Counted from the stretch's first letter, positions 28,288 to 28,876 are shown. The stretch: 41,445 bases of DNA from Escherichia coli (GCF_016903815.1 NZ_CP069975.1); one strand, 5' to 3'. Translations and numbers: made by a program. Notes: generated by a model not told the origin, from the letters alone.

Positions 28288-28620
28288 TTAGTTACCGCTG
28301 ATAGCGCGGTTGTAATCATTAACGTTGCGATTCTTCCTGTTAATCCCCATCAGCATCGTTTCTGTATCGAGGATATACGCTGGCAGATCATCAAAATATT
28401 CACTGCTAAACTCCGGCATCCTGCACATAAATGCACTTTTGGGGTCAGAGTGCTTAACCTTTGTCGGCGTCGGCGTTAAATTCGCTGATCGACTCCCGGA
28501 GCAACCGCTGAGTGTCAGCAGGAATACGCTGGCGAACATTACCCGCCGCAACCAGTTGTTTCTGAACTTCAGCTTTTCGTTCCATTTGCCTGTCAGCATA
28601 CTTGGCTTGTTCTGATTCAT
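28288..28620 (-). CDS. Lipoprotein (lipobox LSGC); candidate outer-membrane spanin (Rz1-like)
   Basis: ORF with signal peptide ending LTLSG-C; overlaps the 3' part of the upstream TM/coiled-coil ORF in another frame. Start codon uncertain (internal Met at 28599 or 28539 likely). Confidence 0.55.
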   Translation of the reverse strand: MNQNKPSMLTGKWNEKLKFRNNWLRRVMFASVFLLTLSGCSGSRSANLTPTPTKVKHSDPKSAFMCRMPEFSSEYFDDLPAYILDTETMLMGINRKNRNVNDYNRAISGN

Positions 28621-28876
28621 TTTTCACTTCCTGGCTGTGAAAATGTTGCTCTGCTTTGTTCATCGTCTCAATGGTCTGGTTAAGATCCATTATTGACTTA
28701 TCACGTTCCTTAACAGCCTGATCAAGACTGCCAATTTTCTCTATGGCTTGCTTTAGCTGATGACGTTCCCATGCAAACCCAGCACCAACAAGTGCGCAAA
28801 TCAGAACAAGAACACCAGTAGCAGCAAGTTTCTCCTTCAAAGACAAAGCTGTTTTTAACGTAGAAAAGAATGACAT
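28454..28876 (-). CDS. Membrane-anchored coiled-coil protein; candidate inner-membrane spanin (Rz-like)
   Basis: ORF track 28454..28903; start placed at ATG 28876 with GGAGGA RBS. N-terminal TM helix ATGVLVLICALVGAGFAW followed by K/E/Q-rich helical region; VAAGNVRQRI resembles the lambda Rz motif. Confidence 0.55.
   Translation of the reverse strand: MSFFSTLKTALSLKEKLAATGVLVLICALVGAGFAWERHQLKQAIEKIGSLDQAVKERDKSIMDLNQTIETMNKAEQHFHSQEVKNESEQAKYADRQMERKAEVQKQLVAAGNVRQRIPADTQRLLRESISEFNADADKG

Follow-up and report, generated by a model that had tools for sequence, protein, structure and literature searches.

Organization of the ppfA/mlp locus

Two overlapping genes, ppfA and mlp, were found on the minus strand of the window, the whole 41,445-nt stretch of Escherichia coli DNA (NZ_CP069975.1) analyzed here. 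The gene ppfA (28454..28876), encoding a predicted i-spanin of 140 aa, was identified by its open reading frame and translation, by identity with P1 gp064 and by a match to phrog_89. It begins with ATG 28876, and the Shine-Dalgarno sequence AGGAGG (28882..28887, minus strand) lies six bases upstream of this codon, at the site also marked in Table S1 of Kongari et al. The gene mlp (28288..28620, minus strand), encoding a predicted o-spanin, namely a 110-aa precursor of an outer-membrane lipoprotein with a mature part of 71 aa, was identified by its open reading frame and by matches to phrog_30284 and P1 gp063. It begins with ATG 28620, inside ppfA and in the +1 frame, is preceded by the Shine-Dalgarno sequence AGGAAG (28627..28632, minus strand), also located inside ppfA, and extends 166 nt past the ppfA stop codon, i.e., the pair has the overlapped architecture. 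In relatives, the same place is occupied by AGGAGG or AGGAAG. The dual-coding overlap (28454..28620, minus strand) comprises 167 nt, encoding residues 86-140 of PpfA and, in the +1 frame, residues 1-55 of Mlp. The interval 28288-28876, assigned to a spanin gene pair in the first-pass annotation, runs exactly from the mlp stop to the ppfA start.

PpfA contains a single hydrophobic segment, residues 17-35 (LAATGVLVLICALVGAGFA; codons 28772..28828, minus strand), located after a Lys-rich N-terminus; here the Kyte-Doolittle mean reaches its maximum, 2.35. The segment lies within a predicted helix spanning residues 13-110, and a single N-terminal transmembrane domain of type II, with the C-terminus in the periplasm, is accordingly predicted. 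In the AlphaFold2 model, built from an 18-sequence alignment with a mean pLDDT of 69, helix 13-110 is followed by a break at residues 111-119 (AGNVRQRIP) and a second helix at residues 120-138, which corresponds to a mostly helical or coiled-coil periplasmic domain with a break before the C-terminal helix. The hydrophobic periodicity of the heptad type (3.5 residues) is significant at residues 37-75, where it was reached by 0 of 5000 shuffled sequences, and not at residues 76-110. No cysteine is present in the periplasmic part. The earlier description of this product as a membrane-anchored coiled-coil protein is thus borne out as to the anchor and the long helix, and as to the coiled-coil pattern for residues 37-75 only.

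The N-terminus of Mlp, MNQNKPSMLTGKWNEKLKFRNNWLRRVMFASVFLLTLSG followed by CSGS, comprises a basic n-region, a short hydrophobic core and the lipobox LSGC with Cys40 (L37-S38-G39-C40; codons 28501..28512, minus strand), i.e., a signal for signal peptidase II with the lipobox cysteine, conserved in relatives. The signal peptide of 39 residues is atypically long. Position +2 of the predicted mature protein is Ser, not Asp, as expected for sorting to the outer membrane. Mature Mlp contains one cysteine (Cys66) beyond the lipidated one, and only 5 prolines. A lipoprotein gene with the lipobox LSGC, overlapping the first gene in another frame, had been noted at this place in the first-pass annotation, and the ATG 28620, the AGGAAG site, Cys40 and the +1 frame agree with this.

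Identity of the locus

At the DNA level, the window shares 97-98% identity with P1, RCS47, JL22, P7 and SJ46 and belongs to a P1-like phage-plasmid; it corresponds to the P1 region from the tail-fibre genes to ban. PpfA is 100% identical to P1 gp064, and Mlp is identical to P1 gp063 at 107 of 110 positions, the substitutions being N56K, P58S and A59D. As judged by this identity, ppfA/mlp is the predicted overlapping spanin pair already catalogued for P1-like phage-plasmids, and a known and ordinary one. The starts, the Shine-Dalgarno sites, the 167-nt overlap and the operon upfC-upfB-ppfA-mlp-upfA beside oriR are the same in P1 and in the window; the differences are the three substitutions in Mlp and the replicon, which is of the p0111 type in the window and IncY in P1.

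All differences between the two Mlp proteins cluster at 28445-28455 (minus strand), in residues 56-59, encoded by the first codons past the ppfA stop. At these residues the dual-coding constraint ends, and PpfA is unchanged relative to P1.

In the P1 reference record NC_005856, ppfA is P1_gp064, with 'possible periplasmic function', and mlp is P1_gp063, 'membrane lipoprotein precursor ... possibly involved in regulation of lysis'; the RefSeq product name for P1 mlp is 'Rz-like spanin'. Kongari et al. 2018 (PMC6139136, Table S1) entered the P1 pair among the overlapped spanins, gp064 being the i-spanin and gp063 the o-spanin, with start sites and Shine-Dalgarno sites identical to those read in the window. 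The long signal peptide of gp063 is reflected there in the curators' remarks 'Too long signal sequence' and 'LipoP server finds cleavage site at 39th position'. In the article of Bednarek et al. 2022 (PMC9025707), P1 ppfA/mlp are described as partially overlapping spanin genes forming an operon unlinked to other lysis genes; as that article puts it, citing Summer et al. 2007, the P1 spanin genes were assigned from predicted features. The location away from lyz and lydAB is a known peculiarity of P1. In a survey of P1-like phage-plasmids, mlp and ppfA are among the 21 extremely conserved genes. The main text of the P1vir transcriptome papers does not mention ppfA/mlp. The overlapped i-spanin/o-spanin reading of the first-pass annotation is in line with the Kongari table, the RefSeq name, the P1 lysis literature, the PHROG assignments and the sequence features of both proteins.

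The labels in PMC9025707 are o-spanin for ppfA and i-spanin for mlp; the sequence features and the table of Kongari et al. 2018 give the reverse.

Alignments of the best-matching P1-like phage records begin at 1938, and positions 1-1937 of the window are left unmatched by them. The first ~1.9 kb of the window may represent a variable tail-fibre segment.

Comparison with other spanin families

Searches against PHROG assigned PpfA to phrog_89 (E = 5e-25, nearly full length), with weaker matches to phrog_739 and phrog_214, all of them labelled 'Rz-like spanin'. Mlp matched phrog_30284, 'Rz-like spanin', with E = 2e-76, and phrog_456 weakly. The PpfA homologue of P0082, the most distant relative found (33% identity of PpfA), matched three Rz-like i-spanin PHROGs with E values of 1.6e-7 to 2.3e-6, and the overlapping lipoprotein of P0082 matched phrog_30284 and phrog_456. 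The full-length matches and synteny place the pair in the P1 PpfA/Mlp family (phrog_89/phrog_30284; family 'P1' of Kongari et al.).

The lambda Rz and Rz1 proteins fall into different PHROG families, phrog_13 and phrog_3198, and have in common with PpfA and Mlp only the weak secondary matches phrog_739, phrog_214 and phrog_456. Nothing significant was found in Pfam scans of PpfA and Mlp, including the families of Rz and Rz1 (PF03245 Phage_lysis; PF06085, Rz1 lipoprotein), and membership in these families is not demonstrable for either protein. A BLASTP comparison of PpfA with lambda Rz gave E = 0.27, and no alignment was obtained between Mlp and Rz1; comparison of the PpfA-family profile with lambda Rz by hhalign yielded a probability of 2%. 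The BLASTP alignment runs through the motif VAAG..R, reported in the first-pass annotation as reminiscent of lambda Rz: 'VAAGNVRQR' of PpfA does align with 'VAAGRRRLH' of Rz, but without significance, and since neither BLASTP nor hhalign gave a significant result, the motif is unusable as evidence of homology.

The resemblance to lambda Rz/Rz1 is architectural, and homology is not demonstrable: both pairs combine a helical inner-membrane protein of type II with a small lipoprotein of the outer membrane whose gene is in the +1 frame, the mechanism is presumed to be the same, and the VAAG..R resemblance is short. In contrast to lambda, where Rz1 is embedded in Rz, mlp of the window extends beyond ppfA, the pair is located outside a lysis cassette, and significant sequence similarity is absent. 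As to composition, PpfA has no cysteine in the periplasm, and mature Mlp, of 71 aa with only 5 prolines, has one beyond the lipidated cysteine; the corresponding numbers for lambda are two in Rz and one in Rz1.

Genes lysB and lysC of P2 are located in the lysis cassette. Only sub-threshold matches to the corresponding NCBIfam models were obtained, to P2 LysB for PpfA/Mlp with E = 0.0023 (18 bits against a cut-off of 93 bits) and to LysC with E = 0.036 (14 against 27 bits), scores far under the curated cut-offs. The likeness to P2 LysB/LysC consists in these matches and in the overlapped architecture, which is listed for the P2 pair by Kongari et al. 2018. By architecture, then, the pair is of the spanin class, and by sequence it is of the P1 family.

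Distant homologues were searched for with phmmer (1.84 billion representatives), with a word-indexed protein search for PpfA and Mlp, and with tblastn against 50,697 phage records; only P1-like phage-plasmids were found, and consequently no guilt by association with endolysins is obtainable from these searches.

Conservation and coding capacity of mlp

Both ppfA and mlp are intact in all 51 distinct haplotypes, represented by 78 full-length IMG/VR loci, and the lipobox region reads TLSGCS or ILSGCS in each of the 51. In phage-plasmids of Cronobacter, Salmonella and Klebsiella aerogenes, in which PpfA is 59-64% identical, the +1 open reading frame is kept with the same end position and retains the ATG, the AGGAGG site, the basic n-region and the lipobox in the form LSAC, LNGC or LNAC. 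P0082 also has a lipoprotein open reading frame in the +1 frame, whose product contains the sequence LFLLTLSACSQK.

Comparison of the parts of the two genes lying outside the overlap gave the following result. In the 55 codons of mlp past the ppfA stop, 42-44 residues (76-80%) are identical in relatives whose PpfA is ~60% identical, and 31 of 55 (56%) in P0082, against 33% for PpfA. For the non-overlapping part of PpfA the values are 41-49 of ~86 residues in the ~60% relatives and 27 of 92 in P0082. Within the ppfA/mlp unit, conservation is highest in the part of Mlp lying outside the overlap.

The explanation that only ppfA is a real gene and that mlp is a fortuitous, untranslated +1 open frame has two points in its favor: when PpfA is recoded synonymously, the +1 frame stays open by chance in 51-76% of cases (5% for the most distant relative), and gene callers usually leave mlp uncalled. 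An open +1 frame is therefore unsurprising in itself, and the case for mlp rests on the conserved start, the conserved signals and the conservation of the downstream coding part. An untranslated frame would be hard to reconcile with the joint retention of the ATG, Shine-Dalgarno sequence, signal peptide and lipobox, with its intactness in every haplotype, or with a downstream part that diverges more slowly than PpfA itself, both at ~60% and at 33% PpfA identity. This explanation is scarcely credible, and mlp is regarded below as a translated gene.

Operon structure and genomic neighbourhood

The genes are arranged in a leftward operon in the order upfC-upfB-ppfA-mlp-upfA, tightly packed, with intergenic gaps of 8 to 39 nt. 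The first gene, upfC (29713..29997, minus strand), encodes a PAAR-like tail spike tip protein similar to T4 gp5.4, as follows from matches to phrog_281 and the NCBIfam PAAR model and from cryo-EM and HHpred literature; it is the PAAR-like gene that the first-pass annotation had placed under one promoter with the spanin pair. The second gene, upfB (28916..29761 as annotated, minus strand), encodes the tail-spike 'tripod' virion protein, according to its open reading frame, the P1 record and virion literature. In the cryo-EM and proteome literature on the P1 virion, the spike tip is a monomer of UpfC, the counterpart of T4 gp5.4, to which the trimeric 'tripod' of UpfB is attached. As UpfC and UpfB are virion proteins, the operon is of the late type by content. 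The last gene, upfA (27886..28278, minus strand), was identified as an open reading frame whose start is 9 nt from the mlp stop, and directly past upfA lies a terminator-like hairpin (27857..27873, minus strand), recognized in the sequence, which is probably the end of the operon.

In the diverged relatives L085, L086 and L090, the gene after mlp encodes a Gp49-family protein (PF13876), which may replace or accompany the UpfA homologue. The repA/upfA region of P1-like elements has been described as hypervariable.

No endolysin or holin gene was found within the window, and none lies beside ppfA/mlp in any relative examined. Location in a holin/endolysin cassette is usual for spanin genes, not obligatory; in the window and in all relatives, ppfA/mlp are flanked by upfB and upfA and adjoin oriR. 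The origin, with iterons at 27627-27735, a GATC cluster and a DnaA box, occupies about 27620-27850 and is adjoined by repA (26666..27586, minus strand), whose product is 42% identical to P1 RepA. The first-pass annotation had likewise located the pair next to repA/oriR and away from an endolysin/holin cassette. The genes dmt-hrdC-uhr are divergent from upfC-upfB-ppfA-mlp in every relative examined.

Iterons with the sequence TCGCGTATAGTCAAC and a spacing of 21 nt are present at 27627-27735 and 26404-26664, and they are unlike those of P1. Replacement of the IncY replicon by a p0111-type replicon has been described for about half of the P1-like phage-plasmids, e.g., JL22.

The constant company of the spike genes raises the question of whether the pair serves the tail-spike module UpfC/UpfB, in spike assembly or in penetration of the envelope at infection. 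The shared operon and the synteny with upfC-upfB, kept by all the relatives examined as far as 33% identity of PpfA, would be explained in this way. The anchor of PpfA and the lipoprotein signal of Mlp, however, place the two proteins in the envelope of the producing cell and not in the virion, the P1 proteome and cryo-EM papers name neither of them among virion components, and their PHROG matches are lysis proteins. A role in the spike module is therefore very improbable.

Candidate promoter of the operon

The pattern of late promoters dependent on Lpa was defined as a 9-bp inverted repeat (AAGTNACTT, as in LP23) located 4 nt upstream of the -10 hexamer, with no -35 element. The annotated P1 late promoter LP23 reads AAGTGACTT-TCAA-TAAAAT. 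A candidate promoter of this type, AAATAACCT-AAGT-TAAAAT, was found at 30030..30048 (minus strand), ~30 nt upstream of upfC, with 2 mismatches to the LP23 pattern. It matches at 6 of 8 box positions, its spacing and -10 hexamer TAAAAT are the same as in LP23, and no -35 element is recognizable. With up to 2 mismatches, 5 matches to the pattern were found in the window against 0.33 expected, for a consensus built on LP23 and one near-perfect site of the window (1 mismatch), and not on the full set of 11 P1 late promoters.

Other matches to the pattern are the perfect LP23 equivalent at 23004-23022 (minus strand), a site with 1 mismatch at 3103-3121 (minus strand), a site with a perfect box and a poor -10 inside dmt at 32739-32757 (plus strand), and a site with 2 mismatches near parS at 23119-23137 (minus strand). 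In the divergent dmt/upfC intergenic region, the C1 repressor operator Odmt of P1 (formerly Op68) was located at 30079..30095 (plus strand) by identity with the annotated P1 site.

The late-type promoter presumed in the first-pass annotation may have its counterpart in this box with 2 mismatches upstream of upfC; at the equivalent P1 site, however, 5 of 8 box positions match, with 3 mismatches, and no late promoter is annotated. In relatives, the -10 hexamer of the candidate site is conserved and the box only partly. For these reasons the candidate is graded as a plausible late-type promoter of the operon and no higher.

Proposed function of the ppfA/mlp pair

The pair is very likely a two-component spanin of the P1-type phage-plasmid, in keeping with the observed gene structure, targeting signals, conservation, identity with P1 and operon layout. 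A single N-terminal helix would anchor PpfA in the inner membrane in an N-in, C-out orientation, and the long helical, partly coiled-coil domain of PpfA would reach into the periplasm. Mlp would be translated from the internal +1 start and, after export and attachment of lipid to Cys40, delivered to the outer membrane. If lambda Rz/Rz1 is taken as the model, PpfA and Mlp would bind by their periplasmic ends and form a bridge across the periplasm, and after removal of the cell wall by the endolysin Lyz this complex would fuse or disrupt both membranes and complete lysis. Both genes would be transcribed with upfC, upfB and upfA as one leftward operon, not with lyz and lydAB, and their expression would fall in the late period.

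In a genome-wide knockdown study with dCas12a, the plating efficiency was 1.3 for ppfA and 0.24 for mlp; both genes were non-essential, with no plaque defect, on plates containing 5 mM Mg2+ and Ca2+, and lambda Rz was essential in the same study. As the knockdown may have been incomplete, this result is a caution for the assignment to lysis and not a refutation of it.

Absence of a plaque defect is also what might be expected if PpfA and Mlp were envelope proteins expressed in the lysogen, acting in superinfection exclusion or receptor masking like Llp of T5 and Cor of phi80, and not in lysis. The pair adjoins the plasmid-maintenance module, and two predicted sigma-70 promoters, P1ppfA and P2ppfA, are given in the P1 record inside upfB. 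The predicted P1ppfA, however, has a poor -10 (CACAGT) and was not picked up by the consensus scan, and ppfA/mlp are packed tightly with virion genes in one operon. In addition, the combination of an anchored helical protein with an overlapping lipoprotein is characteristic of spanins, the PHROG matches of both proteins are to spanin families, and a PADLOC scan returned no meaningful match to a defence model. An envelope function in the lysogen is therefore quite improbable, and the pair is interpreted here as a spanin.

A further reading, which we consider unlikely, is that the P1-type pair is dispensable for plaques and permanently coupled, in relatives down to 33% identity of PpfA, to the spike-tip operon and not to lysis genes, the operon perhaps being driven by a degenerate, unannotated Lpa-type promoter. 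If so, P1 could have a redundant route of outer-membrane disruption, or PpfA/Mlp could serve a second purpose, outside lysis and connected with the spike module.

Gene annotation in related elements

With the pair read as a spanin, its significance lies mainly in correct annotation, since overlapped spanin genes of this kind are routinely missed or truncated by public gene callers. In every relative fetched, the public gene calls contain no overlapping mlp homologue. In relatives L085-L093, C-terminal Mlp fragments of 46-52 aa are called instead (about 5431-5589 in L085 and L086), and phrog_15803 'lipoprotein', with 46 positions, seems to have been assembled from fragments of this kind.

The annotated upfB start, 29761, overlaps upfC by 49 nt, and in relatives UpfB is 258-260 aa long, its gene starting ~10 nt after upfC. 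The true start of upfB is probably ATG 29704, 19 codons downstream of the annotated ATG; it is preceded by the Shine-Dalgarno sequence AGGAGA, and the PHROG match of UpfB starts at residue 20.
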